IMG/VR virus record: IMGVR_UViG_3300009194_000010
Span: 5,830-69,829 of that record
Origin: a virus
Strand: one strand, 5' to 3'
Length of the DNA stretch: 64,000 nucleotides
How positions within the stretch are numbered: position 1 is the first letter of the stretch; each line of letters starts with the position of its first letter. The notes beneath the pieces were generated by a model, which did not search any database, was not told the origin of the DNA, and worked only from the letters and a program-made list of their open reading frames with translations. Position numbers and translations under genes: made by a program. Of this stretch, positions 2,469 through 48,532 are shown piece by piece.

Positions 2469-2503
2469 GATAGAAGCCTGCCTTGCTGACGGTTGTGTTC
2501 TCT

Positions 2504-2530
2504 CTATGTCATAGAGCCTTCGGGTATTTT
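2504..2530 (-). promoter_or_regulatory. phage middle-type promoter (AAATAC-N15-CATAG)
   Basis: Same motif and spacing as upstream of PhuZ and the 14.3-kb RNA candidate. Confidence 0.55.
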
Positions 2531-2546
2531 CGCCCCGGGTTACGCG

Positions 2547-2572
2547 AAAAAAAAAGCGCCCCGAAGGGCGCT
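2547..2572 (-). terminator. intrinsic terminator
   Basis: On the minus strand: AGCGCCC-UUCG-GGGCGCU followed by a U-run. Confidence 0.75.
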
Positions 2573-2620
2573 GAGGAGTATTAAACGAGGCTGTTACATA
2601 CAAGGATGCTCAGCGTATTT

Positions 2621-3031
2621 TTAGACAGACTTTTGGACATCGTCGGGACGATATCCGTTGGCGGATAACGCATTGATCATGCGCTCCAGATCCACGTCAG
2701 TCTTGTTCTCGAAGACCATGGTCACCTGACCCGCCACCGAAATCTGGATGGTCTCCTGACGAATCCACGGAATCCCGATCATGGTGTATTCGCCATTCGG
2801 AAACTGAATCCGGATGTAGGGGTATTTGAACGGATCATTCGGTACGCCTGCTGGCAGGGTCGGATACACCGCTGCGTGCACGGCTTCGATATCCATGCCG
2901 TATGAAGCGGCGGTTTGGGCACTGACGATTCCCTCGAGTCGGACGTTACGGAAATTGTTTCCGATCACGTTGGTCGGGTAGACCTCGAAAGAGAAAATCT
3001 GGTTTAAACGAACGTCATAAATGGAAGGCAT
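2621..3031 (-). CDS. conserved phiKZ-like phage protein upstream of DNA polymerase (gp49-like)
   Basis: 136-aa ORF; position and GIPWI motif recalled from phiKZ-like phages. Confidence 0.6.
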   Translation of the reverse strand: MPSIYDVRLNQIFSFEVYPTNVIGNNFRNVRLEGIVSAQTAASYGMDIEAVHAAVYPTLPAGVPNDPFKYPYIRIQFPNGEYTMIGIPWIRQETIQISVAGQVTMVFENKTDVDLERMINALSANGYRPDDVQKSV

Positions 3032-3033
3032 GG

Positions 3034-3411
3034 TTAGCTCCTTGGGGTTGATAAGTGGAGAATGACCACCGCCGTCCCTTTTGCATCCACGGGAACAAAT
3101 GCCAAGAATTCCCCTTCAGGAAAATGCTGAAGGGTTGCCTCTAGCTCTCGTCCTATGGTCTCCACCCCATCCATGATCAGCTCATCGACTTCATCCAGTC
3201 CGTCGAAGAGGATTTCCGGGAAGGGTTCACCAAACACTGCGTGTTCGTCATCGAGAGGTAGTTGATGCTTCTCGATTAGGTAGCGCAGTCTCAGTAGGAG
3301 ACGTTTATGCTGCTGGGGACTGTACGGGGCGTCACCACTTTCGGTACTGACTATGGAGTGGTATAGCTGCTCAAGCGATGGGTATTTGACGGTGACGGTG
3401 ACGAGAGACAT
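3034..3411 (-). CDS. hypothetical protein
   Basis: 125-aa ORF in tightly packed minus-strand operon, AAGGA RBS. Confidence 0.7.
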   Translation of the reverse strand: MSLVTVTVKYPSLEQLYHSIVSTESGDAPYSPQQHKRLLLRLRYLIEKHQLPLDDEHAVFGEPFPEILFDGLDEVDELIMDGVETIGRELEATLQHFPEGEFLAFVPVDAKGTAVVILHLSTPRS

Positions 3412-3457
3412 GGCCTGGGGTTCCTTGGCGATCGATTCACGTTTTTCTTCTACACCA

Positions 3458-3823
3458 TTAGATCACCAACGCCACGTTGCGCTGAGTATCGGTGCGTGCG
3501 TATATAGCAATTGTGTGTGGATCGTGGCCAATCGACCGTTCTAATGTCTCGCGTACCGTATGCAGATATCTCACACCATCAAACAACAGGGTGTTACGGG
3601 TTTGTTCTGTTAGGTTGTTGAACCCCTCGATACTCTCCATCACGATGCTCACATACCCGATGTAATCCTGGATATTTTCGAGTTCTTCCATTCCAAGACG
3701 ACATCGGTATTTGTAGAAGTCGTGAATGAGCGCATGCGAGAGACGGGTTCCGTATTCGGGCTGCTCTGGTGTATGCAACAACCCGAAGTCACGGATATCA
3801 TGCATGCATAGGCTGGTAGACAC
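3458..3823 (-). CDS. hypothetical protein
   Basis: 121-aa ORF, AAGGAGG RBS before GTG. Confidence 0.7.
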   Translation of the reverse strand: MSTSLCMHDIRDFGLLHTPEQPEYGTRLSHALIHDFYKYRCRLGMEELENIQDYIGYVSIVMESIEGFNNLTEQTRNTLLFDGVRYLHTVRETLERSIGHDPHTIAIYARTDTQRNVALVI

Positions 3824-3837
3824 GCGACCTCCTTGTT

Positions 3838-4260
3838 TTACAGCAGTGATTGTTGTATCATTTCGGGGGTGTCATCGAAGACAAGGAATAGCACCGGAAG
3901 GGACCATGCGGTCCCTTCCCATTGGCCACCTGCAGTGTCCAGGTACTGTCCACTGAAGTTATACATCACCATCTGGAATGCATGGCGATGGGCACGTTCC
4001 AGAGACATGAAACGTTCCCGTATCAACGACAACGATACCCCTTCAAGCGAATACCCTTGCTGGATCACCTCCAGTTCCAGATCACTGGGTTCGTGGGGAG
4101 GATGTCCCAGTGGGACACATTGGTTTTTCATGTAGAAGTATTCAATGAATGCCCACCACACGCCATCGGGATCTTGTCCTTCGTCGCTGCAGTAGTCAAA
4201 CAACGGAGCCAAGTGGCCACCAACTTCCCATGGACAAAACGTGAGTGCCACGGTTTTCAT
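3838..4260 (-). CDS. hypothetical protein
   Basis: 140-aa ORF in operon. Confidence 0.7.
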   Translation of the reverse strand: MKTVALTFCPWEVGGHLAPLFDYCSDEGQDPDGVWWAFIEYFYMKNQCVPLGHPPHEPSDLELEVIQQGYSLEGVSLSLIRERFMSLERAHRHAFQMVMYNFSGQYLDTAGGQWEGTAWSLPVLFLVFDDTPEMIQQSLL

Positions 4261-4263
4261 TTC

Positions 4264-4821
4264 TTAAGCCCCCACCATCGGCCCTGCGTAGGACGATGTA
4301 AACCGCGGTCCCGGGATACGACGATGGCGATCGTAGATATCCTGCAGTTGGGCGTAAACATCCTGCATATGAAACCCGGTGTCCACCGGACAGGTTTCCA
4401 CGATCAGAATAGCCAGTTGGTTACGGGGGTCGGGATGGTGACGGTTGAAGTCGAAATGCATGTCGTCGATCTCCTCCCCGTACCCTTCCAAGTGACCCAC
4501 GATTTGGGCGAGCGCTGGCTGGACGGCAATGTGGGCATGGGCAAGATTGTTGGCAATCACCCCCATGGCCTCGTAGCGGCGATCCATCTGAATCCACTGA
4601 CCGTTAAGATACTCATCCATCAAGTACTCAATGTCAGGTGGGGCCATGGCGTGGCTATGGACATGATAGAGATACTGTGAGAAAACAGTGTAGACATAGT
4701 AGCGCAAGGCATTGCCTAACTCACTACCTTCGACAACTGATGGAAGTCCCACCAAATACCGCTCGATATTGATGAGGTAGGGTTCGATCGTAGTGCGTTC
4801 TATGCTCAATGTGAATTTCAT
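4264..4821 (-). CDS. hypothetical protein
   Basis: 185-aa ORF, translationally coupled (TGATG overlap). Confidence 0.7.
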   Translation of the reverse strand: MKFTLSIERTTIEPYLINIERYLVGLPSVVEGSELGNALRYYVYTVFSQYLYHVHSHAMAPPDIEYLMDEYLNGQWIQMDRRYEAMGVIANNLAHAHIAVQPALAQIVGHLEGYGEEIDDMHFDFNRHHPDPRNQLAILIVETCPVDTGFHMQDVYAQLQDIYDRHRRIPGPRFTSSYAGPMVGA

Positions 4822-5273
4822 CAGTAACTCCTCGGGTCATGCGGCAACAGATAGTGAGTTGTTGCCTTCACCACAAAATAGTCTGGGGTTAGCCGTTCCA
4901 TGCGGAGCTCTGAGACGGCTTGTTGTTCGGTCATAGCCGTTAAGGCTGTCATGACATCACCCAAGCAGTATTCCGTTAACCGCTCCACAACCTCCGCATA
5001 ATGCTCGTACCACCCCCCATTGACTACCTGTCCGGAGTGCTGGTCGATCATTGTCCCCAGCGCGCCAAGCTCCACCAGCTCCAAATAGGCCAGTTGGTAA
5101 TGCTCCGCCAGTAGGTCGTGGCTATGGGCACAACGGTTATGGAAGAGGTAGGTGGCATATTGCAGGAAGGTATTGGCGGCCCGGCGTACGGCGTCAAAAC
5201 CAAGGTGGATGTTGAGTTGTCGAGATAATGGCTTCGTGGAGAGAACGATGTAGCAGTGCATACGTTTAACCAT
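4821..5273 (-). CDS. hypothetical protein
   Basis: 150-aa ORF in operon. Confidence 0.65.
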   Translation of the reverse strand: MVKRMHCYIVLSTKPLSRQLNIHLGFDAVRRAANTFLQYATYLFHNRCAHSHDLLAEHYQLAYLELVELGALGTMIDQHSGQVVNGGWYEHYAEVVERLTEYCLGDVMTALTAMTEQQAVSELRMERLTPDYFVVKATTHYLLPHDPRSY

Positions 5274-5679
5274 TGGTCAAGACCACCAGATATAGCATTT
5301 CGGGGTGGAAACATCCACTCCATGCCACCTCATAGGTGTATGTGGGAAGTAGTCGTCGGGCTAGTACGGCGGCCATGATCATTCCCTCCTCGTAATATTG
5401 CTGGATACCAAACTCATCGATCCCGGGTTGACGGTTGCCCCGCCAGTCTTCCTCATAGTAACCAATGACGTCCAATAGCATATCGCGGGTATAGACATCT
5501 GGGTACTCCACGTCGTCCGTGGCAGGAAGTAGATCAACAAGCCCAGCAAGTATTTGAAAAGAGACCTCGGTGGGAATCCCGAGCATAACCCCCCGGCCCA
5601 TGAGACCGGGGTATTGATGGAAGATCCCTTTCAGATCAAGGCCGACCATCACCTTAACCGTCTTAATTGTTTCGTTCAT
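5266..5679 (-). CDS. hypothetical protein
   Basis: Start at MNETIK after GGAGGAG RBS. Confidence 0.65.
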   Translation of the reverse strand: MNETIKTVKVMVGLDLKGIFHQYPGLMGRGVMLGIPTEVSFQILAGLVDLLPATDDVEYPDVYTRDMLLDVIGYYEEDWRGNRQPGIDEFGIQQYYEEGMIMAAVLARRLLPTYTYEVAWSGCFHPEMLYLVVLTNG

Positions 5680-6676
5680 ACTCCTCCAAGCGACGGCGCT
5701 CACGCTCGGGAATCCAGTCTCCCCGTACAATGGATTGACGGAGTTCTTCGAAATAGGACGCTTCCTCGTTCTGTGGTAGCTCTGAATGATAGAACCGGAC
5801 AGTAAAAGTTTGCGTCAATTCGGCCCGATAGGGCATGAAGGGTTTGATGTTGGACCTCAGGAACATCAGGTCGAAATCCTTCATTACTGGATCTACGAAG
5901 CGCTGGAAGAACTCTTCGTATGAAGGAACTCCCATATTGAGCAGGATCTCTTCGGTGCAGGGACCGTCTTGACCAAACACCACGCGCGGGTAACGGCGGC
6001 GAATGGCATCCATTAACATGGGACGCAGTGGGATGTGACGTGAGGCCTCGCCGATGTGGGTGTACAGCTGCTGGTAGATGTAATTGGCTACCGTGCTGAT
6101 ATCCACCGCCAAGCACTCATTCTCGTCGTCACTGTACCCATGGGTACGTTCCCAGTCGGCGATACGGTAATCTTGACCACCGATCAACGCCAGCATCGAT
6201 GGGGTATCAAACACATCCCATTGACGCCACACCTCACCGCCAATATGGGTACCCAGCATCCGGTGCAGTTCGATGACCGTGGTATCCACCAGCTCATGTG
6301 AGAGGAAGTCCTCCGCCAATAGCAAGTCGGCATCTTCTGGGATGGCGCAATCCCGCAGTGCCTGGGCAATGCTGGTCACCGGAGAGGCCGGTGTCCGATA
6401 CCGCACCGTTTGACTCACACACTCGTCAATTAACGCCTTGACGATCAGCAACGCACGTGGCCGCGTCAGTTTGGTGATTGGTGGTACGGTGATTTCAACG
6501 TCTTCTTCGGTCGTTTCGAAACGACTGATCTGTTGCCCACCAACGTTCATCTGGCGATACCGTCCGGTAACTCGACTCTCTTGTGTCACGAACGGCTTCT
6601 TGGTATATGCCTCCGATGCATGTATCAGCGCATTCACGTAACCCATGGTGTCAAGTACAACAAATACATTTTGCAT
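5663..6676 (-). CDS. hypothetical protein
   Basis: Long ORF; likely start MQNVFV abutting the upstream stop. Confidence 0.7.
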   Translation of the reverse strand: MQNVFVVLDTMGYVNALIHASEAYTKKPFVTQESRVTGRYRQMNVGGQQISRFETTEEDVEITVPPITKLTRPRALLIVKALIDECVSQTVRYRTPASPVTSIAQALRDCAIPEDADLLLAEDFLSHELVDTTVIELHRMLGTHIGGEVWRQWDVFDTPSMLALIGGQDYRIADWERTHGYSDDENECLAVDISTVANYIYQQLYTHIGEASRHIPLRPMLMDAIRRRYPRVVFGQDGPCTEEILLNMGVPSYEEFFQRFVDPVMKDFDLMFLRSNIKPFMPYRAELTQTFTVRFYHSELPQNEEASYFEELRQSIVRGDWIPERERRRLEEYERNN

Positions 6677-7993: not shown

Positions 7994-8028
7994 AAAAGAG
8001 AGTTCGCCAGCGGCGAACTCTCTTTATG
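7994..8028. terminator. bidirectional terminator hairpin
   Basis: AAAGAGAGTTCGCC-AGC-GGCGAACTCTCTTT between convergent genes. Confidence 0.75.
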
Positions 8029-9051
8029 TTAATCAACATAAAACCAATCCTTGTATTCTTCAGTGTTGCCATTAATCCAACGATGTACTGTAGAAAAATT
8101 AAGGCCCAAACTACGCGCTGCGTCTCTTACGCTCGTATAAACAACCCCATTGATACATACTTTACGGGGCGTTGCTCCTGCATTACTGATTTTTCTGGCC
8201 TTGCTCATATTTTCCCTACGGGTGTCAGAAAAAACCACACCCTTATATGAAACTAAAGCCAATGAATTGCGTGCATCGGGGGAACTATTAAACAGTTGTT
8301 TTGTTTCCCAGTTAACTTCTAGAAGATACTGCTCAATTTGGTATGCGTGTTCTCTATTCTTTACCATGAAACACGATGCTTTGATTAATGGATCTTCATT
8401 GTACGCTGTTTGTAAATTATAATTTTGGTGTTTATTTCTTTTAAGTGCGTGTCGGTGCGTTATTAAACGAGTATATAGGTTGGATGTGCTACCGATATAA
8501 AACTGCTCTGTTTTGGGGTGGTATATCACATACACCCCCGGTATTTTAGATCCAAAACATACGTCCTCAGTTACATTATCTAGACCTTCAACCCCATACA
8601 GAGAAAGTTCGTCTAATGTAATAAGTTCTAAGAACTTTTCGTTATCTTTCTCAGGCGGGACACCTAAACGTATTGTGGGGTCCGTATCGCTTTGTAAAGC
8701 TACAGTTTTAGCTTTCTCTGATATTTCCTCATCGGGTACCAAACTACCGACTATTGGATTTAGAGATCTTCCTTCCTTAACAAAATACTCAATTAAAGCA
8801 TTCTTTATTTTCTGACGATCCTCTTTCTCTTTTACAACATAATACACGTGGTATAAATCTTTAGAATCATTGTAAATTTCTTGTAGAATACGGTTATGGT
8901 GTTGGTTCCTGCTTAGAAGCCAATAATGTTTGTATACACTTTTATTAGGGTTGATCGAAGTACCTACATAAACCTTACGTGTTTTGACATGGTGTATCAC
9001 ATAAACCACACGTTCATGTTCGTTGTGTTTGAACTCGACTTTACAAAACAT
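8029..9051 (-). CDS. free-standing homing endonuclease with two GIY-YIG domains and C-terminal NUMOD1-like HTH
   Basis: VYVI...VYVGTS and VYVI...FYIGST motifs, each followed by H(H/Q)NxxLQ; C-terminal INGVVYTSVRDAARSLG; visibly AT-rich relative to flanks. Confidence 0.85.
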   Translation of the reverse strand: MFCKVEFKHNEHERVVYVIHHVKTRKVYVGTSINPNKSVYKHYWLLSRNQHHNRILQEIYNDSKDLYHVYYVVKEKEDRQKIKNALIEYFVKEGRSLNPIVGSLVPDEEISEKAKTVALQSDTDPTIRLGVPPEKDNEKFLELITLDELSLYGVEGLDNVTEDVCFGSKIPGVYVIYHPKTEQFYIGSTSNLYTRLITHRHALKRNKHQNYNLQTAYNEDPLIKASCFMVKNREHAYQIEQYLLEVNWETKQLFNSSPDARNSLALVSYKGVVFSDTRRENMSKARKISNAGATPRKVCINGVVYTSVRDAARSLGLNFSTVHRWINGNTEEYKDWFYVD

Positions 9052-9220
9052 ATACCTTCCCCATTTTTCAGTTCTGTGTATGTGATTGGTAACGCTAGTT
9101 TAAAATTTCCTTCAACGACCCGGAAGCCCATCGTCGTCACATCCGCACCATCGTGGGTGGGCCGTAACAAAAAAATAAGGCATATAGGTCGTCCCCTAGG
9201 GGACGACCTGTTTATGTCAT

Positions 9221-9685
9221 TTACCAGAATGGAGCATCCAGAATGGCATTCTCCAGTAAGGTAATTACCTGGGTGGTCTCCGCATCGTTCCGTGCCGACC
9301 AGCGCAGAATAATGGCTGGGTAGGTTGGTGGCAAATCGAACTCTTCGACATCTTCCTCGTCGACATCGAATTCCCACGGCAGCCAGGCGATCTCGCATTT
9401 AACGGGGACCGACATGGGTCTTACTGCCAACATCCCCGATAAAGCAAGATACAGGAAGGGTCCGACTAGCTCCGTTCCAGGGTTTTCGTCAAAGACCAGT
9501 ATCAGATAACCGTCTTCGCCATACATCGGTGCCCCCACTGACGACTTGAGCACCTCCACACCTTTGTGTGACCTTATTGCCTTGACTAACGGTTCTATCT
9601 CTTCATCAACATACCGATAGCCCAGCTCTTCGTTTTCAGATTTGATATAGCCGAAGTAGAAACCGTCAATGCATAATTCTTTCAT
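9221..9685 (-). CDS. hypothetical protein
   Basis: 154-aa acidic ORF with AAGGAG RBS, flanked by terminator hairpins. Confidence 0.7.
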   Translation of the reverse strand: MKELCIDGFYFGYIKSENEELGYRYVDEEIEPLVKAIRSHKGVEVLKSSVGAPMYGEDGYLILVFDENPGTELVGPFLYLALSGMLAVRPMSVPVKCEIAWLPWEFDVDEEDVEEFDLPPTYPAIILRWSARNDAETTQVITLLENAILDAPFW

Positions 9686-9775
9686 TTTGTTTCTCCTTTA
9701 TGCGTTGTGGCATAAATGTCCTCCCCGGAATTGGGGAGGACTTATGTCGTATTATCCATGATCACCCAAGAAGGG

Positions 9776-10306
9776 TTAGGCCGGTTCCAGTTCCTGTACG
9801 GACCGTTTCCGGACGGTGGATTTCAGGATGTGAGGTTTAGATGTTACATCTTCCCACGTGACCTTGGATTGGCGAACCCCAACCAGGGGCTTTTTACGTA
9901 AGAACATTGTGTCTGGAAGTGCTACGACATGAGAACGGAAACCCGGACTGTCAGTATTGACCCACCAAAACTCTTCCAACAGAGTTCCGACCTTGCATAC
10001 TTGGAGTGGGTAGAGGTAGTCTTTATCTTCAAAATACCACCGTGTATAGGCTTTATTGATGAGGCGTTCTCGCACCTGTTCAGGGAGCAAGATTCGTTCG
10101 GGTTTCTTACGAAGGCCCATTACCTGAGACACGACTTCGGCGCGATCATAATAAATCACGTTATCTCGGGTATAGGCGAACACAAACCCCTTACCGATTT
10201 GGTTCAAGCACTTGACATGCTTATACGTCAACGTAAACGGAGACAGGGCTTTATCGAGTTCACACGCCATAGTCACATCCAGCTCTTTCTTGCTGGACTT
10301 GGCCAT
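9776..10306 (-). CDS. hypothetical protein
   Basis: 176-aa ORF, GAGG RBS. Confidence 0.7.
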   Translation of the reverse strand: MAKSSKKELDVTMACELDKALSPFTLTYKHVKCLNQIGKGFVFAYTRDNVIYYDRAEVVSQVMGLRKKPERILLPEQVRERLINKAYTRWYFEDKDYLYPLQVCKVGTLLEEFWWVNTDSPGFRSHVVALPDTMFLRKKPLVGVRQSKVTWEDVTSKPHILKSTVRKRSVQELEPA

Positions 10307-30257: not shown

Positions 30258-32924
30258 TTACTGTTGGACGTAGATGAAAGGCGCTACATCGGGTGGATGG
30301 CGCAAGTAGGTCTCCAGTATCCGAATGTAGAACGTGTACTGATAGAGGGTAAGTCCCACCGGTTCGTCATGCCAGTGTGGGTAGATCTCCAGGTGACTGT
30401 CCACGAAGTCCCGATTACACGGATCGTAAGGCAGTAACCATTCGTAGCCCTTACACCACTGCCGGATCTCATGTTCGCTGTACTGATCTTCAATCCCTTC
30501 CGGGTAGAAGATATCGTTCATCAGGTCATGCAGTACCTTGTTGGCGAACGGCGAAACCAGGTGATACTGGGTCTCGATAAAGTCCGGTCCGTCACGGTCC
30601 CGTTTGGGGAACTGCGCGTCCATGTAGTCACTTACGGCCTTGTCACGAACATCATCTTCTTGACGGGCCACACGATCAACAGGATACACATCCCGGAACA
30701 CCACCGGCGGTGTCTGCAGGGCGTAAGGTGCCCCATTGCGCTCCCCCTCGATGACTAGCTCATTGCGCTGTTCATCGTAGACCAGATCATCCTGATCGCG
30801 GTAATGGCCATCGATCACGATGCGCAGTACCTTGTGGGTATGGATGTTGTAGGTCGCGTTATTGGACAAGACCCCGTAGCGGATAAAGCCGGTTTCGGTG
30901 GTGGCCAACCGTGACAAGTCACTATTGGGGAAGCCGTAGCCACGGACAGTGATCTTGTGGGACATGCTGTCACCCAGATACTCAAGGTGACTGAATACCA
31001 CTTCGGGCCAACGTACCACATAATCGATATCTTCGATCAATGGCCGACCATCAAGATAGATGTCCAATTGCCCGGGTGGGAGCGTGGATACTTCCTCTTC
31101 TTCTACGGTGTTGTGAACCTCCATTGAGGTGACGGAGAACCGTAGATGACCATCGGTGCGGGTCAACATCAGGTCGTAGCAAAGGAAGGCATCATCCTGC
31201 ATCACTGCCCCATACTGGGACACGTCATCCAGCTGCCATACCCAGCGGTGTGGCTCGACGGTGTTATCCAGGAACCCGTATTCGTGACGGTTAGGGTGTT
31301 CGGTGATATCCACCCAGTTACCCTGACGCACGTCCGCCCACACATCTTCAACGTAGAGTCGGAAATTGTGACCGTAGGCAATTTCCACCGGATCATTTCC
31401 ATAGACCACGTTGGACTTATACCGCCCATGACCGGTCAATGCCTCGACCCGAACCGTGTTGGGGTTCCGTGGCATGTAGTAGGTACCGCTTAAATGGCGG
31501 TGGTACTCCAACAATACCCCATCCGCATCGTACTCGAACACGGTGCTGTTATGTTGGTGCTCGAAGGCCAGGTCAGCGTACTTCCGATTGTCGAGGACAT
31601 AGACATCAGATGGTGTGTCGGCCAATACCGTGGCTGCCGCGTGATACCCATAGACATCACCGACAAACGCTTGAGCGTCTTCTTTATCGGGATGGGTAGC
31701 GGTGAAACGACCGTACGTGATTGGGTAGACCACTTCCGGGGGTGCGGACATGAAGCGCACATAGGGACACTGTTCCAACGTGGCAGCATGCCACAGTGGC
31801 AGGGAGTCCATTCCCGTCATGGCCCGTACGATTTGGTTACTGGACAGCCGATACAGTTCCTGGATACGGTTAGCATCCGCCACCAGGGGCCGCTCATAGC
31901 CGGAGTGACGAATATAGAGACGCAACCGCATGCCACTCAATGAGGTCCACTCATCCGACGGCCAGGTATCAGGCATAAGCTGGTGGCGAGGATCAGTGGG
32001 GTGGGTCTGAACAAAACTCTCCAGACGTTCGATGGGAATGCTGTAATCCTTGTGCGTCAGCATGCGTAACCAGGTACCTTCGTTGTGATGGTACCACACC
32101 CCCATGAACCGGTTCTGGATACCCGGCTTGATCAGAAACAGATCCACGTCGTCCAGGTATTCGATGGTATCGACCGAGGGATCATCGTAGTGCAGGATGT
32201 ATTTGCGTCCCGTGTCCAGTGTCGAGATGAAGGAGGGCAGCTCATCAATATCAAACTCGACCATGCGTTTGATGGAGCTGTCCAGGACAAACTCAACAAT
32301 GTCATCGACCCCAGCGGTTACCAGTGAGATGTTTTGAACGAACCTACCGTTGACGTAATAGTGGGGGTAACCTCCTCGCTCATCGACCAGTTTCTTCAGG
32401 TCGCGCTGGAAGATCAGCAGGTCGTTGTCGGACTTGACACGCATGCCATCCGTGATCAGATACGCCTGACCATCCGAGCGTTCGCTCTGGAAATAGGCAT
32501 TACTGTAAAGTCGCAGGTAAAGGTCCACCCCTTCGAGTTCGTGAATGCGTGGATTGATCTTTACCGCTATCACCAGATTGCGACTGGGGGTGATCCACAC
32601 GTAGGTCTCAAACCGGGGAAACTGAATCCCGTCGTTGGTGTAGATGTCGGTGTGGAGGAGATGTTCATTGGCGAGATAGGCCAGACTCATCCATTGGCGT
32701 TTATTGGCGGGAATCCCCACCCGACGTGGCAACACCTGGCCAATCTGGTAGACATGGTAGGTGTCGCTTTGGGTGGGGAGCACCAAGCGTTCGTAAAACA
32801 GGTTTATTGTCTGACGGGCCCCGCGCTTAGGGGTCAGCCGGGCCAGGCGGTAGGTAAACTGGCGATCCTGTCCGGGATTACACCAGATGTTCTCTACGGC
32901 ATGGCGTAACAGATACTCGTTCAT
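30258..32924 (-). CDS. virion structural protein (phiKZ gp27-like, possible baseplate)
   Basis: 888-aa ORF beginning NIWCNPGQDRQ in conserved block. Confidence 0.7.
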   Translation of the reverse strand: MNEYLLRHAVENIWCNPGQDRQFTYRLARLTPKRGARQTINLFYERLVLPTQSDTYHVYQIGQVLPRRVGIPANKRQWMSLAYLANEHLLHTDIYTNDGIQFPRFETYVWITPSRNLVIAVKINPRIHELEGVDLYLRLYSNAYFQSERSDGQAYLITDGMRVKSDNDLLIFQRDLKKLVDERGGYPHYYVNGRFVQNISLVTAGVDDIVEFVLDSSIKRMVEFDIDELPSFISTLDTGRKYILHYDDPSVDTIEYLDDVDLFLIKPGIQNRFMGVWYHHNEGTWLRMLTHKDYSIPIERLESFVQTHPTDPRHQLMPDTWPSDEWTSLSGMRLRLYIRHSGYERPLVADANRIQELYRLSSNQIVRAMTGMDSLPLWHAATLEQCPYVRFMSAPPEVVYPITYGRFTATHPDKEDAQAFVGDVYGYHAAATVLADTPSDVYVLDNRKYADLAFEHQHNSTVFEYDADGVLLEYHRHLSGTYYMPRNPNTVRVEALTGHGRYKSNVVYGNDPVEIAYGHNFRLYVEDVWADVRQGNWVDITEHPNRHEYGFLDNTVEPHRWVWQLDDVSQYGAVMQDDAFLCYDLMLTRTDGHLRFSVTSMEVHNTVEEEEVSTLPPGQLDIYLDGRPLIEDIDYVVRWPEVVFSHLEYLGDSMSHKITVRGYGFPNSDLSRLATTETGFIRYGVLSNNATYNIHTHKVLRIVIDGHYRDQDDLVYDEQRNELVIEGERNGAPYALQTPPVVFRDVYPVDRVARQEDDVRDKAVSDYMDAQFPKRDRDGPDFIETQYHLVSPFANKVLHDLMNDIFYPEGIEDQYSEHEIRQWCKGYEWLLPYDPCNRDFVDSHLEIYPHWHDEPVGLTLYQYTFYIRILETYLRHPPDVAPFIYVQQ

Positions 32925-41828: not shown

Positions 41829-43733
41829 TTAAAGTCGGGCTAGCGTTAATCCGGTTTGGTTCTGGTACTTACCGCCCTTGTCGGCGTAGGACACCTCGCA
41901 GGGACGGTCACCCTTAAAGAACAGGAACTGGGCAATGCCTTGTCCTGCGTAAACTTTAAGGGGTAGGGGTGAACAGTTGGCAATTTCAATCACCACTTGA
42001 CCCTTGAACTCCGGCTCGATTGGGGTGACGTTGACAATTGCTGCCAACCGGGCGTAGGTAGAGTTATGGACAACAATTCCACTTGCGATGAAGTTATGCA
42101 CTTCAGGCACAGTGTAATCGTAGGCCAGTTGCTCTTCTGCGGGAGCTATATCAACTACTTTATCCCACACTACATCTGGATTGGCAAGGCATGTCAGTTC
42201 CTCGTCGCCGATACTTGCTGCTATTTTACGTAGGTTCGGCAATGAAATCCCTTGAGTAGTAGACCTCCTTAGTCCAATTTGACGCCATGATATATTTAGG
42301 CGTTTTAAAATGCGCTCTATGTCGTCCCATGCATCGACCGGTAGTGTATCCCAGTTGGTATGAGTGCTCTTTACATCGAGGGTTAGCCAATGTTTCAATT
42401 TGGTGTGTTTTAGACTACCTGGGATGAAACCGATGGTTTGCGCAAATGCTTTTATTGTATCTGGCGTGGTTGTGATCAACGAATAAAGTTTATGTTTAGT
42501 CTCCCCCAGAAATTTCTCTTTTTCCGTCATTCCGAAGAATAGTCCAAAACGACGGAGCAAAATCTGCACCTGTTTGGCCAGTAACTCACTGGTTGTGTAA
42601 TACTCTAGCTGCGCACCAACTCCGTCCTCGCGCACATGACCAAAATAGGAATCGCAGGTGAATAACGCAGCGATATACTCAGCCACTCCTTCCAAGGTTG
42701 CTGTTTGAATCGTCTCGGGAACTGTTTTTTCTTTGGAAAGAACATTAAGGTTATGGTTCTCTAACCAAAGGGCGGCTTTGTTTCTTTCCATACTGCCGCC
42801 GCGACCTTGACGGTTCACTAACCGCACACTTACTTCGTCACGAGAAGCGGCGATGAACCCGAAGGTTTCAGCATCGTTAATAAACGCAGCCATAACCGCA
42901 GGATCCGCTTTAGTGAATACCGGGGAGTGGCCAGATGTATCACATTGACCGTCGGCAGTCATATAACCAAGGAGACGAGCTTCTTGAGGACTGATTACAT
43001 TGGTGCCTTCAACATACTCGCGTCGCGCAACCGCAATGCGATCGTCAATTGAAAGTTCACTTATCGGCGACCAACCGTTCCATTTACGCAAAGGATGTGT
43101 TTCGGTTGCAGTGATGGTTAAACCTCGGGCAGTAGTGACCTTAACCATCGGTAACCTGCCATTGCAGATAAGTCCTTCGGTTGCATATTTGTTTATGTTG
43201 GTGGCTGTGGTGTCAACTCCCTGAATGTTAACCATCCCCCTGGTTTCATCCATCCTCCGGATAAGTCCGGTGTCGGGATCGGTGATCAGCGTATCCCCAG
43301 CAAGACATTTACCCACCGCCACGACCATGACATCCCGAGGAATATCAAAGGTTTCGATGGTGTGACCGAGGATGTAGCTGTTCGGGGGAATGATACAGTG
43401 ATCACCCCGATGCTCGATGAAACAATCCGGGTCAGGGTTGAGGGGATCGATAATGGCATTGCGGACGTTGGTGAAAATCTTGAACTCATCCGCGAGACGA
43501 ACGTCGTAGCCATATGACGCCAAACCATAACTGACGATCTTCTGTTCGTCGACCTCACGTACTTGTTCGGAAACAAACGGGGCGATCATCGGCTTCCCAT
43601 CATTATAAATACTTCGACTTGAGTCGATGGTTGCGCTTCTTACCCCGCTTTCATATTCCCGGATCTCTACGGCGTGTTCGTAATGGTAGGGTGGTTCACA
43701 CAGTGATTTTATTGTACGGTCCGACAGGATCAT
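41829..43733 (-). CDS. dcd: dCTP deaminase containing an intein
   Basis: MILSD, SYGLASYGYDVRL, IPPNS, GK|STYAR, NVTPIEPEFKG, GIAQFLF and SYADKGGKYQNQ motifs. Confidence 0.9.
   Translation of the reverse strand: MILSDRTIKSLCEPPYHYEHAVEIREYESGVRSATIDSSRSIYNDGKPMIAPFVSEQVREVDEQKIVSYGLASYGYDVRLADEFKIFTNVRNAIIDPLNPDPDCFIEHRGDHCIIPPNSYILGHTIETFDIPRDVMVVAVGKCLAGDTLITDPDTGLIRRMDETRGMVNIQGVDTTATNINKYATEGLICNGRLPMVKVTTARGLTITATETHPLRKWNGWSPISELSIDDRIAVARREYVEGTNVISPQEARLLGYMTADGQCDTSGHSPVFTKADPAVMAAFINDAETFGFIAASRDEVSVRLVNRQGRGGSMERNKAALWLENHNLNVLSKEKTVPETIQTATLEGVAEYIAALFTCDSYFGHVREDGVGAQLEYYTTSELLAKQVQILLRRFGLFFGMTEKEKFLGETKHKLYSLITTTPDTIKAFAQTIGFIPGSLKHTKLKHWLTLDVKSTHTNWDTLPVDAWDDIERILKRLNISWRQIGLRRSTTQGISLPNLRKIAASIGDEELTCLANPDVVWDKVVDIAPAEEQLAYDYTVPEVHNFIASGIVVHNSTYARLAAIVNVTPIEPEFKGQVVIEIANCSPLPLKVYAGQGIAQFLFFKGDRPCEVSYADKGGKYQNQTGLTLARL
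42063..43307 (-). mobile_element. intein (415 aa) with LAGLIDADG-type endonuclease
   Basis: Begins CLAGDT, block B TATETHP, LLGYMTADG and YIAALFTCDS blocks, ends YDYTVPEVHNFIASGIVVHN followed by Ser; lower GC than the exteins. Confidence 0.92.
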
Positions 43734-45085: not shown

Positions 45086-45463
45086 AAACCCCCTCCTCGG
45101 CCCCCAGTGTCAACACCGGAGAGCGAAGGAGGGTGGTTTAGCCATCGAGCCCTCATGGGCGACTCCCGCTGGGGAGTATCTATGCGATAATAGCACTACA
45201 TGGTGGTGGGTTCTTAGCCTAAATGCAGGTCCATACAACGGCCACGACGTTGCGGTGCGCAGGCATCATCCGGCGATTGAGTACCGACGGCCCTTTTGGC
45301 GTTGATGACACCACGGACACAGTTTCCTGGATTCCACACCCACCACGGATGGAATACCACTGCACCAGTGTCAGCCAGAAAAGGAACCACGGTGATGGAT
45401 TTAAGATCACGTCTACTAACGTGCTCCTTTACTACGCTCAAATAGGCGAACGCTACATTCACC
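45086..45463 (-). ncRNA. candidate structured non-coding RNA (~380 nt)
   Basis: AAATAC-N15-TACAG promoter-like motif, helices with minus-strand G-U pairs, 9-bp long-range pairing, terminal hairpin followed by TTTATGCC. Confidence 0.5.
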
Positions 45464-45478
45464 TGTATTATCATCCAC

Positions 45479-45723
45479 TTAAGTATTTGTTTGTGTAGTA
45501 ATGATATAGTGTTGGTAGTGTCGACCTACAGGTCATACTACAAGGGGGTGATCCAGTCGCAAAGGGGTCCGTAGGAGGATAAGTTCCGATACTACGGGCT
45601 GAGGGCAAACCAATCACCGAGAGGTGACCGTATCCTCACCCAGGCTACCAACACAACGCCCTCCCTTCGGGGAGGGCATCTATGCCGTAGTTAAGTATTT
45701 GTTTGTGTACGTATTATATAGTG
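45479..45723 (+). repeat. duplicated promoter-like element TTAAGTATTTGTTTGTGTA-N5-ATATAGTG at 45479-45511 and 45691-45723
   Basis: 19-bp exact direct repeat plus a shared ATATAGTG at the same offset. Confidence 0.8.
45509..45677 (+). ncRNA. candidate small RNA with a 20-nt segment antisense to the 16S rRNA 3' end
   Basis: 10-bp closing stem 45509-45518/45645-45654, internal hairpins with a GAGA loop and plus-strand G-U pairs, UUCG terminator; 45542-45561 is AAGGGGGTGATCCAGTCGCA. Confidence 0.7.
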
Positions 45724-45807
45724 CTGGACGTGTCCTTTCGGAAATGGCCTGTGCTCTTGCTTGCTCGTTACGGTTGATTGCCCTCCCCTTACCGGGAGGG
45801 CTCTTTT
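45721..45807 (+). ncRNA. candidate small RNA (~85 nt)
   Basis: Starts at the second promoter copy and ends at GCCCTCCC-CTTACC-GGGAGGGC-TCTTTT; no ORF or RBS. Confidence 0.5.
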
Positions 45808-45877
45808 ACGTCGAAATGGTATAGCGTAACTAACATGCAATGTTTCCGTTTTCCCGACCAGCAACAAGGAGCAACCG

Positions 45878-46399
45878 ATGGACCTTACTGCATTAAGGGC
45901 ATCATTAGAAGGATACGTCAACGCCGTTAAGGATAAGTTCGATACTGTCCAAGCGGCCATTACACACAATCAGACAATCGCGGTTTCTGATCCAGGGAGT
46001 ACTCGAGTCTTTTCTGGTGATCAGACCGCGATCAGTGGAACGGATATCTTCCTGACCACTGATGTCACTCTAGAGACTGGGGTGGAGTATCTCGTCGAAG
46101 GGTATCTGGAACTCGTGACCGAAGGTGCCACCGCTGAAGCACTGGACGGCATTGAAGTTCAATCGCGCGTCGACGTGGATACCGTCACTCAAGCGTCAAC
46201 CCTGCAACGCCTGTGGCGTGAGTACGACAATACCCAACACGTACCCATTATCCTGAAAACCATGGTGACAGGTACCGGGGCGGCAATGACCTTGGACCTG
46301 AGTGTCTACCATGAGACTGCCGGGTTTACCCAGACGGGTGATTCCACGTTCCGGGCGCAGAACTGTGTACTGACCATTCGCCCAACCGTGGCCAGTTAA
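45878..46399 (+). CDS. putative virion (decoration/tail-associated) protein
   Basis: 173-aa Thr-rich ORF, AAGGAG RBS, late-type GAAATGGTATAG motif upstream (also at 46440). Confidence 0.55.
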   Translation: MDLTALRASLEGYVNAVKDKFDTVQAAITHNQTIAVSDPGSTRVFSGDQTAISGTDIFLTTDVTLETGVEYLVEGYLELVTEGATAEALDGIEVQSRVDVDTVTQASTLQRLWREYDNTQHVPIILKTMVTGTGAAMTLDLSVYHETAGFTQTGDSTFRAQNCVLTIRPTVAS

Positions 46400-46483: not shown

Positions 46484-48532
46484 ATGTTTTCCAAGGTTAG
46501 GCGCATACTCGGGAATATCAAGGTTGTACAAACGGAAAAAGAAATTGTGGTAACAGGGATTCCTGCCGATACCATGGCACGTGACATCTCTAAAATCTGG
46601 CGTACGTCGCGTATCAATAAAAACATGTTCACGACACTGTCGCGTAACACGTTAGCCTTCCCCCTGTTCTTCGCCACTGATGTCATGTACATGTTGGAAA
46701 CGATGACGACCCACCGGAGTCGCCATACCAATGTGCGCACACTCACCAAGATCAAGAACCTGCTACTGGAGAATACCTGGTTACAGGACACACAGTTAGA
46801 GACCACCCCGCGTCTGGATCTACGTAAATTGACGAATCTGATCTATACCCCGAAGGACTACCAGCAGGAGTTTTTCGAGGCGTACGATCGTCTGACCCAA
46901 CAATACCAGCTCCGTGGGTATCTACTGGCTGCCGCTGCGGGTAGTGGTAAGACCTACATCAATCTGGCATTGGCGGAGTGTCTGGGGGCTGAACGTATTA
47001 TCGTCATCTCACCCAAGAATGCTACCGAACGGGTTTGGGAGGCAGAAGTCCAGAAGCTCTTCAAGAAACCTCCGACCTATTGGGTTCAACAGCACGGCAA
47101 ACCGTATAACGGGGAGCGGGTGGTCATTGCCCACTATGAGTCACTGAATAAACTCCTACCGATTGTAGATAAACTCAAATCACGTAAGACGATGGTGATT
47201 CTCGATGAGTCTCATAACCTCAACGAGATGTCCTCGCAACGCACCCAACTCTATCTCCAGTTGATTGAAGAAGTAGCAGCAGATGATGTTATCTGGGCAT
47301 CGGGTACTCCCATCAAAGCCCTGGGCGCTGAAGCCCTGCCTCTGTTGAGAGCAATCGACCCCTACTTCACCCCGGATGTTGAGGAACGGTTCCGTAAGAT
47401 CTACGGTCGGGATGGTAACCGTGGGTTGGATATCCTCAAACACCGCATCGGACTGATCTCGTTCAAAGTGGAGAAACACCAGTTAGGTCTGGATAAGCCC
47501 ATCATCAAGAAACTCCCCGTGGTGATCCCGAATGGCAAGGACTACACCCTTACTGCTATTCGCCGGGACATGAAAGCCTTCATCGATGAGCGCGCCAAGT
47601 ATTACAACAGTCGACGCAAGGACGACCAGAAGTTCTACGACGAGATGTTGGATGTGTTCTTGAAGACAACGTCGAATAAGCGTCACAAGGACGAACTCAA
47701 ACAGTACCGTACCTATGTCAAAGCTATCCAGAAAGCCGGTGGTGATGCGCGGTTTGTTGCTGAGGAGATCAAGTGGACCAACCGCTGGGAGAAAGAGGTC
47801 GTTATCCCGATGCTACCCAAGGAACACCGGGAACGGTTCAAGGATGTCAAGTCGGTGATCAAGTACGTTAACTTGAAAATCCAAGGCGAAGCGCTGGGTC
47901 GGGTATTGGGGCGTAAGCGTATTGAGTGTCACGTGGATATGGTTCCCCATGTGGACTTTGCTGGTGTCTGTGGGTCCACGCCCAAGAAGACGGTGGTCTT
48001 CACCTCGTTTGTGGAAGCGCTGGAAGCCACCAAGGCGCACCTCGAAAAGAGTGACCTTAACCCGGTGGTGGTCTATGGGAAAACCAACAGTGAGTTGAAT
48101 AAAACGGTCCAACTGTTTGAACAGCAAGAAGACCTCAACCCGCTGGTGGCAACCTACCAGTCACTGTCAACCGCAGTGCCGCTGACCATGGCTGACACCA
48201 TGATCATGTTGAATGCCCCTTTCCGCGCCTATATCCATGAGCAAGCCATTAGTCGTATCCACCGTCTGGGGGCTGATACTCAGACGACGGTATGGGAGTG
48301 CCATCTGGATACGGGGAATGAACCCAATATCTCAACACGTTCCGGCGATATACTGGCCTGGAGCCAACAACAGGTCAGTGCTATTATGGGTATTCGTTCG
48401 CCCTTTGAGGTTGAGGAAAGCGATGGTACGTTGACCGTCTCTAGTGAAGACTATGAAGTGTCTGCTACTTACAACCTCAAGCAAGAACAGCGTGAGGTGA
48501 TGTCCACGCGTCCTCAATACCTGGATTGGTGA
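46484..48532 (+). CDS. superfamily 2 (SNF2/DEAD-like) helicase
   Basis: AAGSGKT, ILDESH, SGTP and QAISRIHRLG motifs. Confidence 0.88.
   Translation: MFSKVRRILGNIKVVQTEKEIVVTGIPADTMARDISKIWRTSRINKNMFTTLSRNTLAFPLFFATDVMYMLETMTTHRSRHTNVRTLTKIKNLLLENTWLQDTQLETTPRLDLRKLTNLIYTPKDYQQEFFEAYDRLTQQYQLRGYLLAAAAGSGKTYINLALAECLGAERIIVISPKNATERVWEAEVQKLFKKPPTYWVQQHGKPYNGERVVIAHYESLNKLLPIVDKLKSRKTMVILDESHNLNEMSSQRTQLYLQLIEEVAADDVIWASGTPIKALGAEALPLLRAIDPYFTPDVEERFRKIYGRDGNRGLDILKHRIGLISFKVEKHQLGLDKPIIKKLPVVIPNGKDYTLTAIRRDMKAFIDERAKYYNSRRKDDQKFYDEMLDVFLKTTSNKRHKDELKQYRTYVKAIQKAGGDARFVAEEIKWTNRWEKEVVIPMLPKEHRERFKDVKSVIKYVNLKIQGEALGRVLGRKRIECHVDMVPHVDFAGVCGSTPKKTVVFTSFVEALEATKAHLEKSDLNPVVVYGKTNSELNKTVQLFEQQEDLNPLVATYQSLSTAVPLTMADTMIMLNAPFRAYIHEQAISRIHRLGADTQTTVWECHLDTGNEPNISTRSGDILAWSQQQVSAIMGIRSPFEVEESDGTLTVSSEDYEVSATYNLKQEQREVMSTRPQYLDW

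Follow-up and report, generated by a model that had tools for sequence, protein, structure and literature searches.

A conserved structured non-coding RNA of phiKZ-like Pseudomonas phages with extended complementarity to the 3' end of 16S rRNA

A 64,000-nucleotide stretch of viral DNA (hereafter the window; positions 5,830 to 69,829 of IMG/VR record IMGVR_UViG_3300009194_000010, a 69.8-kb virus record judged to be approximately 23% complete) was found to contain, from position 45509 to approximately position 45683 of the plus strand, a free-standing non-coding RNA gene of approximately 175 nt, which belongs to a family conserved in phiKZ-like Pseudomonas phages. The RNA carries a segment of 20 nt (the seed) that is complementary to the 3' end of 16S rRNA, and direct pairing of the RNA with host 30S subunits is, judging from the sequences compared, the best explanation for it; we put the probability of this reading at roughly 0.55. 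A first-pass annotation of the window had proposed a phage small RNA antisense to the 16S 3' end at this locus; all of the sequence features which it described were located as claimed, and the helices it named were reproduced by RNAfold.

Results

Complementarity to the 3' end of 16S rRNA

The seed (AAGGGGGUGAUCCAGUCGCA, that is, the 20-mer AAGGGGGTGATCCAGTCGCA; 45542-45561, plus strand) was compared with the 16S 3' ends of E. coli K-12 (L136) and of a Pseudomonas chromosome (L180; loci are given by their L numbers throughout). It was found to pair without gaps with the Pseudomonas sequence TGCGGCTGGATCACCTCCTT through 18 Watson-Crick and 2 G-U pairs, so that the 20-nt pairing predicted in the first-pass annotation also holds against a real Pseudomonas 16S rRNA. 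The target stops 1 nt short of the Pseudomonas 16S 3' terminus, and we take it to correspond to nucleotides ~1522-1541 in E. coli numbering. This run of 20 nt is the longest complementarity to the 16S tail on either strand of the window, the next longest being 14 nt (4059-4072, minus strand, inside an open reading frame (ORF)) and 13 nt, and it also withstood comparison with shuffled controls, the best run among 200 shuffles of the RNA being 15. Across the 16 members of the family described below, the run measured 15-21 nt in every member and ended 0-2 nt from the 16S terminus in 15 of them; it was longer than the best of 200 shuffles in 15/16 members, with a tie in the remaining one (L005, where one shuffle equalled the real run of 18). 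A contiguous-run statistic with G-U pairs allowed is weak when taken alone, as shuffles attain 12-18.

The energy of the 20-bp duplex was calculated as -37.7 kcal/mol, against a cost of approximately 5.8 kcal/mol for freeing the window seed and of 2-14 kcal/mol, according to the depth reached into helix 45, for opening the 16S fragment; the net energy after opening both partners was approximately -11 to -17 kcal/mol (all naked-RNA estimates). When broken down by pairing length, the net values were approximately -13.5 kcal/mol for the 13-nt free tail, -12.3 kcal/mol for 17 nt and -17.4 kcal/mol for 20 nt. On these estimates binding to the tail would be strongly favoured, while entry into helix 45 would be roughly neutral; the scope claimed earlier for the duplex is supported for the anti-Shine-Dalgarno tail but not for helix 45, where the 17-nt core has no net gain.

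When a 6.8-Mb Pseudomonas genome was searched for the complement of the 15-mer of the seed, allowing one mismatch, only five 16S 3' ends were retrieved, and in four phage genomes the exact target sites of the 15-mer were confined to the gene's own antisense. Neither a Pseudomonas genome nor 4 phage genomes contained a perfect-match target of the GGGGG variant. The seed finds its best host counterpart in rRNA and not in mRNA targets such as those of an Hfq-type trans-acting sRNA.

It had also been suggested that further segments of the RNA are complementary to the opposite strand of helix 45, and this was rejected as a family feature (RNAduplex against 16S ~1481-1522, 300 shuffles; mean z -0.31 over 16 members), z being marginal only in phiKZ (-2.04), L033 (-1.72) and PhiPA3 (-1.58).

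Sites of at least 12 nt with complementarity to the 16S 3' end number three in the 64 kb, which is above naive chance. Apart from the seed, these are GGAGGTGATCCAGC at 4059-4072 (minus strand), a 14-nt perfect complement inside ORF 3838-4260, where it reads ELEVIQ, and GGGGGTGATCCA at 32586-32597 (plus strand), which is antisense to ORF 30258-32924.

Structure of the RNA

The minimum free energy (MFE) obtained with RNAfold for the RNA starting at 45509 was -78.1 kcal/mol, compared to -55.4 +/- 4.2 kcal/mol for 200 dinucleotide shuffles (z -5.45), of which none folded as stably. All of the following parts lie on the plus strand. A TATAG motif (45505-45509) provides the predicted transcription start at its last G (45509), at which ATGATATAG ends, and the 5' strand of the long-range stem P1 (GUGUUGGUAGU, or GUGUUGGUAG(U); 45509-45519) begins with this same base; the 3' strand of P1 (GCUACCAACAC, or (G)CUACCAACAC) is at 45644-45654, both strands being assigned from the MFE structure together with covariation in the family. 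The P2 hairpin (GACC-UACA-GGUC, 45523-45534) was seen in the MFE and ensemble folds and is present and covarying in relatives. It is followed by the seed, which starts 33 nt from the predicted 5' end, and by a variable domain, whose hairpin GUCCGUAGG/CUACGGGC (45567-45599) is predicted by folding and is held in common with L003 only. The P3 hairpin (UCACC-GAGA-GGUGA, 45614-45627) has a GNRA loop, the G and A of which are invariant in the family, on a covarying stem. The terminator hairpin (GCCCUCCC-UUCG-GGGAGGGC, 45658-45677) is part of the MFE structure and has a homologue in phage 201phi2-1 that is mapped and active in vivo; directly 3' of it stands AUCUAUGCC, with no U run like the long U tail of Hfq-type sRNA terminators, and then the motif CTATGCC (45680-45686). 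The plus strand is fixed by the GNRA and UUCG loops, by the G-U pairs and by the ends mapped in relatives.

The seed was 30-56% unpaired in the ensemble, at an opening cost of 4-9 kcal/mol. A switch which masks the seed, as put forward in the first-pass annotation, is therefore possible but not indicated: the seed is partly closed, as that idea supposes, but it is also about half open, and the backing for a switch is weak. ARAGORN predicted no tRNA or tmRNA gene, and no Rfam family was found at threshold (two chance-level matches, E 1.9 and 7.4, both fall outside the RNA itself), in agreement with the initial impression that this is not a described family.

A family in phiKZ-like phages

A blastn search of 45400-45900 against phages gave no match. 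The family was reached through IMG/VR loci carrying relatives of the neighbouring helicase gene and through a scan for the exact 15-mer. Among the helicase-relative loci, the copy in L003 is 79% identical to the window RNA and those in L002 and L005 keep little beyond the seed; the helicases next to family members have 44-72% identity to that of the window. The 15-mer scan returned at least 119 loci, and 16 of the matches listed are full-length covariance-model matches at E <= 0.01 (8 of these 16 being training sequences). The copies in phiKZ (between PHIKZ203 and PHIKZ204), 201phi2-1 (between gp304 and gp305) and Noxifer (adjoining gene 231) are unannotated, while the copy in PhiPA3 adjoins gene 233 (441-nt query under genes 232 and 233). 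The phiKZ copy is expected at approximately 212,854-213,002 on the plus strand of NC_004629.1.

All copies have a common order of parts, namely TATAG/TATG, P1, P2, (U)AAGGGGGUGAUCCAGYY, variable domain, P3 (GNRA), return strand of P1, one or two terminators and (C/T)TAT(G/T)(C/T)C, the last G of TATAG/TATG opening P1. The TATAG/TATG motif stands directly 5' of P1 in 16/16 members, the invariance of the TAT motifs in the alignment being partly by construction because they were found by regular expression. TATG is presumably the core of the phiKZ late promoter (the motif was confirmed in no text consulted).

A covariance model (R1; 139 positions) was built from 10 relatives, excluding the window. 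It matched the window at 45509-45687 of the plus strand over model positions 1-139 (43.4 bits, E 5.4e-7), which was the best of 8 matches in 30 sources; the other matches were to phiKZ, PhiPA3, 201phi2-1, L003, L005, L093 and L095, with nothing in the 22 other sources. The string AGG..GGUGAUCCAG, located between P2 and the variable domain, is invariant across the family and is followed by two pyrimidines, and the window carries this signature at 45542-45558 (AAGGGGGUGAUCCAGUC). In the alignment of all 16 sequences (A1) the mean column identity was 44%, and 11 of the 23 invariant columns (G40, G43-G52) fall in the seed, which is the most conserved part of the family. After CCAG, all 16 members have only C or U at the next two positions, as expected from the wobble-compatible variation predicted in the first-pass annotation.

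P1, P2 and P3 covary across the family. At P1 positions -2 to -5 there are 4-8 pair types each, 4-6 of them standard, and the positions are paired in 11-14 of 14 sequences. In alignment A2 the named structure was 91.9% paired, compared to 82.7% in shuffles and 20-54% when the structure was slid along the alignment, with 9 two-sided pair changes; none of 500 shuffles equalled it. In A3, which holds the 8 non-training members in an alignment fitted to the model, 94.3% was paired, with 10 two-sided pair changes. The window RNA shares these traits, having P1 from the first transcribed base, the P2 hairpin and the GNRA-capped P3, all of which covary.

Thirteen other Chimalliviridae-like genomes were also searched. 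Seed patterns gave no convincing site in Eowyn, SA002 (11-mer pattern excepted), XC31, ZPAH34, Miami, phiRU, LucasX, Moabite, RisingSun or FBKp24, and in Ea35-70 a single seed-pattern site was found in a context without a visible terminator; R1 gave no match at E <= 0.01 in the 10 of the 13 genomes that were searched whole with it. From the sampled distribution the element is therefore a feature of a Pseudomonas-phage clade and not of all nucleus-forming phages. In Goslar (MK327938.1, 87360-87372, minus strand) and in Ralstonia phage FLC1-1B (LC819005.1, 173164-173176, minus strand), the intergenic sequence AGGAGGTGATCCT lacks a downstream start codon and precedes a terminator and TTATGCCG; the Goslar motif folds as a local hairpin. 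These two sites were left out as members, R1 having no match there, and they are possible distant analogues of the family. A second seed-like site, one mismatch from the 15-mer, was also observed in 201phi2-1 (NC_010821.1, 175478-175492, complement AAGGGGATGATCCAG).

The same 15-mer occurs in two other contexts. In small viral contigs among the matches listed (L018, L036, L040, L049, L065, L087, L108 (two copies), L121 and L129), it forms part of an unrelated conserved non-coding element with conserved hairpins downstream, the ATG being missing in some copies; Rfam gave no family for this element at the two loci scanned (L036 and L108). In L021, L024, L037, L076, L083, L084, L102 and L131 it serves as a genuine Shine-Dalgarno sequence, of unusual length, directly upstream of a tiny Lys-rich ORF (MKKKPKKGGRGC).

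Expression in relatives

The ends of the RNA were mapped in relatives; the window has the corresponding motifs and its ends are predicted. In 201phi2-1 a transcript 3' end at 229,201 is among the terminators tested according to the main text of PMC11512511, where it is one of eight tested, selected for efficiency above 99%, and one of four that were stronger than the positive control in vivo. Position 229,201 is the end of the terminator of the 201phi2-1 copy (L134 ~1676).

Locus L088 is a phiKZ-like locus that is identical to phiKZ across the 264 nt compared. In nanopore cDNA run X11, adapter-like loose ends were found behind positions 2175 (3 records), 2169 and 2135, with a T19 loose end ahead of 2026. 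On the minus strand these correspond to a 5' end within 1-2 nt of the G of TATAG and to a poly(A)-tailed 3' end approximately 150 nt further on; the adapter and T19 ends thus indicate an RNA of approximately 150 nt on the strand predicted to bear the seed. The summed contig depth over the RNA was 2,105-6,472, compared to 0-20 and 77-166 in the flanks, and Illumina run X9 contained a separate 210-nt contig (1989-2198). Run X16 had no contig across 1983-2383. In run X1 a single contig covers the whole stretch, possibly representing DNA or the source, and neither run was used as evidence. With the limits of such contigs (considered below), these data give good support for a discrete RNA and a hint of abundance. 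The discrete, structured plus-strand RNA proposed at the outset is supported by folding, by covariation and by transcription of relatives with the predicted ends.

At the same locus a 208-nt nanopore cDNA contig (2220-2400, plus strand; adapter at 2220, poly(A) end at 2400) covers the 5' end of the phiKZ-type helicase gene, which points to a short transcript from the beginning of the helicase mRNA that ended prematurely.

Coding potential and downstream genes

The RNA is not coding and is not the leader of one gene. No ATG occurs within 25 nt after the seed in any of the 16 members, and a start codon of any kind within 25 nt of the Shine-Dalgarno-like core is lacking in 12/16, the other four having GTG or TTG at 13-17 nt. 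Frames opening at the first transcribed base (+1) end after 6-45 codons in differing registers across members: 6/16 stop before the seed (4 of these within 6-10 codons), 3/16 read the seed in another frame, and 7/16 read KGVIQ through it. The 21-codon GTG frame from 45509, which had been named as an alternative in the first-pass annotation, is present in the window and is not conserved, the GTG start being found in the window and Noxifer only. As for downstream genes, the ORF following the window RNA is unrelated to PHIKZ204 (E 0.86) and in L003 there is only a short ORF downstream; in several relatives an ORF starts 25-40 nt past the terminator.

Genomic setting

The SNF2/DEAD helicase of the window (46484-48532) has 54.6% identity to the helicase of Pseudomonas phage Noxifer and 44-52% identity to the same-gene helicases of phiKZ, PhiPA3 and 201phi2-1; on this basis the phage is a phiKZ-like (Chimalliviridae) jumbo phage. 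The RNA locus lies within a 1.1-kb stretch that separates divergent gene blocks, and none of the ORFs in this stretch had a family match. No sigma-70-like promoter was found at the RNA locus. A 17-nt upstream promoter box (AAGTATTTGTTTGTGTA, plus strand) occurs exactly twice in the window, in tandem, at 45481 (45481-45497) and at 45693 (0.10 expected; 0/100 shuffles with two copies), each copy having a TATAG downstream and then a short terminated unit. The second unit (45693-45807, plus strand; TATAG at 45717-45721, terminator with a T run at 45780-45801) is weakly structured (z -1.95) and lacks a 16S seed; it could represent either a leader or another small RNA upstream of ORF 45878-46399. 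Elsewhere in the window, a dCTP deaminase-like gene (41829-43733, minus strand) was observed to be split by a LAGLIDADG-containing intein (Pfam DCD, Intein_splicing and LAGLIDADG_3), and the GC content of positions 8001-10000 is 0.43, compared to 0.49-0.58 in the rest of the window.

Discussion

The pairing proposed here would proceed as follows. The RNA would be made from its own phage-type TATAG/TATG start, with its first base within P1, and exported from the phage nucleus, after which the seed would pair with the single-stranded 16S 3' tail of host 30S subunits. It would cover the entire anti-Shine-Dalgarno sequence to the last nucleotide, in the manner of an exceptionally long Shine-Dalgarno sequence that lacks a start codon, and the structured body would keep the RNA outside the mRNA channel, so that it would sit on the platform as a competitive occupant. 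The most likely consequence would be that Shine-Dalgarno-dependent initiation is damped or re-weighted during infection; a possible additional or alternative effect is that the 16S 3' end would be capped against 3' exonucleases or defence nucleases.

Several points weigh against this proposal. Both ribosome binding and its effects are inferred from complementarity. The 17-nt conserved core gains nothing net by going beyond the free tail into helix 45 (-12.3 compared to -13.5 kcal/mol), and the conservation of CCAGYY is therefore left unexplained by simple thermodynamics on the mature 30S subunit. The C/U-only variation after CCAG is also compatible with a small self-hairpin within the seed, and the seed is just 30-56% unpaired in the ensemble. 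In 14/16 members a G, and not the better-pairing A, lies opposite 16S U1537, a choice that might serve to avoid a GGA motif, to which Rsm/Csr proteins bind. Blockage of the anti-Shine-Dalgarno sequence by such an RNA would equally affect the phage's own Shine-Dalgarno-led mRNAs. The element was not found by seed pattern or R1 in 11 of the 13 other Chimalliviridae-like genomes, and it is therefore not required for the nucleus-forming lifestyle. Finally, contig depth is a poor measure of abundance, and DNA may be present in RNA libraries.

A more far-reaching form of the same idea, which we consider doubtful, is that of a virus-encoded, RNA-only ribosome-targeting factor, for which the free 16S tail would serve as a toehold while the seed would enter the base of helix 45, which lies at the subunit interface, by strand invasion, locking host 30S subunits, or assembly intermediates that precede helix 45, in a state exploited by the phage. 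Possible uses would be a departure from Shine-Dalgarno-dependent initiation, a reversible store of ribosomes or a duplex cap that shields the 16S 3' end from host suicide nucleases, and such an RNA would, if real, be the first natural anti-rRNA antisense in phage-bacterium conflict.

Among the rival explanations, the seed might recruit 30S subunits merely to shield the RNA, or mRNA arising from rare read-through, against RNases, or to keep ribosomes waiting for the gene that follows, as a 5' stabiliser or standby site, with the real job of the RNA, if any, in the variable domain. This fits the position of the seed, which begins 33 nt into the RNA and lacks a downstream start codon, as well as the ORFs which begin shortly past the terminator in several relatives, and the pattern resembles the Shine-Dalgarno-like 5' stabilisers of Bacillus mRNAs and phage SP82; those stabilisers need only ~9-10 nt, and not a conserved 17. 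Termination looks efficient, given the 229,201 terminator and a depth that falls from thousands to 0-20, the genes that follow are not related to one another, and the window has a second promoter in between. Many phiKZ short RNAs are classed as 5'UTR-derived (from 5' untranslated regions) through premature termination in the main text of Putzeys et al. (10.1101/2023.10.13.562163), which would suit a stabiliser, but transcription takes place inside a ribosome-free compartment according to the main text of PMC12908238, and co-transcriptional sensing of ribosomes is thereby ruled out. On balance we regard a stabiliser as unlikely.

It is similarly improbable that the invariant 15-17 nt are the binding site of a protein (a phage RNA-binding or host factor) or of another RNA, their likeness to 16S antisense reflecting ancestry from a captured antisense piece of an rRNA operon. 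In favour of this view, maximal pairing with mature 16S rRNA would predict neither the conserved G that faces U1537 nor the conservation of CCAGYY past the free tail, the invariant GNRA hairpin and closing stem are scaffold-like, and phiKZ, PhiPA3 and L033 retain a marginal likeness to 16S antisense upstream of helix 45 (z -1.6 to -2.0). Against it, no better RNA target was present in the Pseudomonas genome or the four phage genomes, the register at the 16S terminus is kept in 15/16 members, which would not be expected from ancestry alone amid such divergence, and no partner gene is conserved next to the RNA save the SNF2 helicase, whose orientation and distance vary.

A far less likely possibility is that the RNA acts as a sponge for host small RNAs or mRNA elements which imitate the anti-Shine-Dalgarno sequence with C/U-rich seeds, relieving or altering host post-transcriptional control; the purine-rich AAGGGGG would be expected to pair with any CCUCC-like seed, but the conserved UGAUCCAGYY extension is specific to 16S rRNA, and all host sites within one mismatch lie in rRNA genes. 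An ordinary strong ribosome-binding site or a translated short ORF can be dismissed almost entirely, since, despite the KGVIQ frame in some members and the tiny Lys-rich ORFs which the 15-mer serves as a real ribosome-binding site elsewhere, the +1 frame stops before the seed or reads it in another register in the remaining members, no ATG follows the seed and the region is enclosed by covarying stems.

Pairing with host 30S subunits, as the preferred reading, matters for several reasons. Little is settled about how jumbo phages that form a nucleus deal with the translation machinery of the host; in the main text of a 2025 review of these phages (PMC12908238) the terms 'noncoding', 'non-coding' and 'sRNA' are absent, and the ribosome-binding factor named is a protein, PhiKZ014. 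The RNA described here is dedicated, conserved and apparently abundant, and it is present in the main laboratory models phiKZ, PhiPA3 and 201phi2-1, where the seed, being short and mutable, offers an easy experimental handle. If the RNA binds ribosomes, it would represent a new viral route to the translation machinery, RNA against rRNA, and a natural precedent for anti-16S antisense agents; if it does not, what remains is a new and well-defined family of structured phage RNAs whose ends have been mapped.

Among known systems, Shine-Dalgarno-like 5' stabilisers include STAB-SD of B. thuringiensis cryIIIA and the polypurine stabiliser of phage SP82. The phage RNA is like these in having a Shine-Dalgarno-like stretch without a start codon, which in their case is thought to hold 30S subunits via the 16S 3' end; they act in cis through ~9-10 nt in Gram-positive mRNA leaders, whereas the phage RNA is terminated, stand-alone and structured, is not in the leader of an mRNA, and has a conserved complement of 17 nt (up to 21), which extends from the base of helix 45 to the final 16S nucleotide. 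In the 1970s-80s initiation was found to be blocked by synthetic oligonucleotides directed against the 16S 3' end; these have the same target and the same expected primary effect, namely competition with Shine-Dalgarno pairing, but are artificial, and no natural trans-acting counterpart was found in the literature searched.

Literature on jumbo phages, phiKZ or Chimalliviridae in combination with anti-Shine-Dalgarno, 16S, non-coding RNA or 30S described no such RNA. The main texts of PMC8244752, PMC8545117, PMC10914614, PMC11512511, 10.1101/2023.10.13.562163, PMC12571901 and PMC12908238 were searched by term. Short RNAs of phiKZ and 201phi2-1 identified by ONT-cappable-seq and Grad-seq (10.1101/2023.10.13.562163, PMC11512511, PMC8545117) resemble the present RNA as short terminated transcripts of the same phages, but those discussed in the main texts lie at other loci (upstream of gp182/gp277, PHIKZ221, PHIKZ302, p40 and PHIKZ298), and the same main texts make no mention of a 16S or anti-Shine-Dalgarno role for a phage RNA, although supplementary tables may list the transcript. 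The family and its 16S complementarity therefore appear to be undescribed in the literature searched, even if the transcript itself may be in such tables.

Ribosome-associated non-coding RNAs, such as an archaeal Val-tRNA fragment on the 30S subunit, act on the ribosome and not on mRNA, as the phage RNA would; as outlined in PMC8938821 and PMC11009984, they are cellular fragments near the decoding site or mRNA channel, whereas here a dedicated viral gene provides a seed antisense to the rRNA tail. Control of ribosomes via the 16S 3' tail is also exerted by proteins that occupy or remove the anti-Shine-Dalgarno sequence, such as RMF in hibernation and the toxin MazF, which cuts it off (PMC12274833); both are host proteins, whereas in the present case the agent would be a base-pairing phage RNA.

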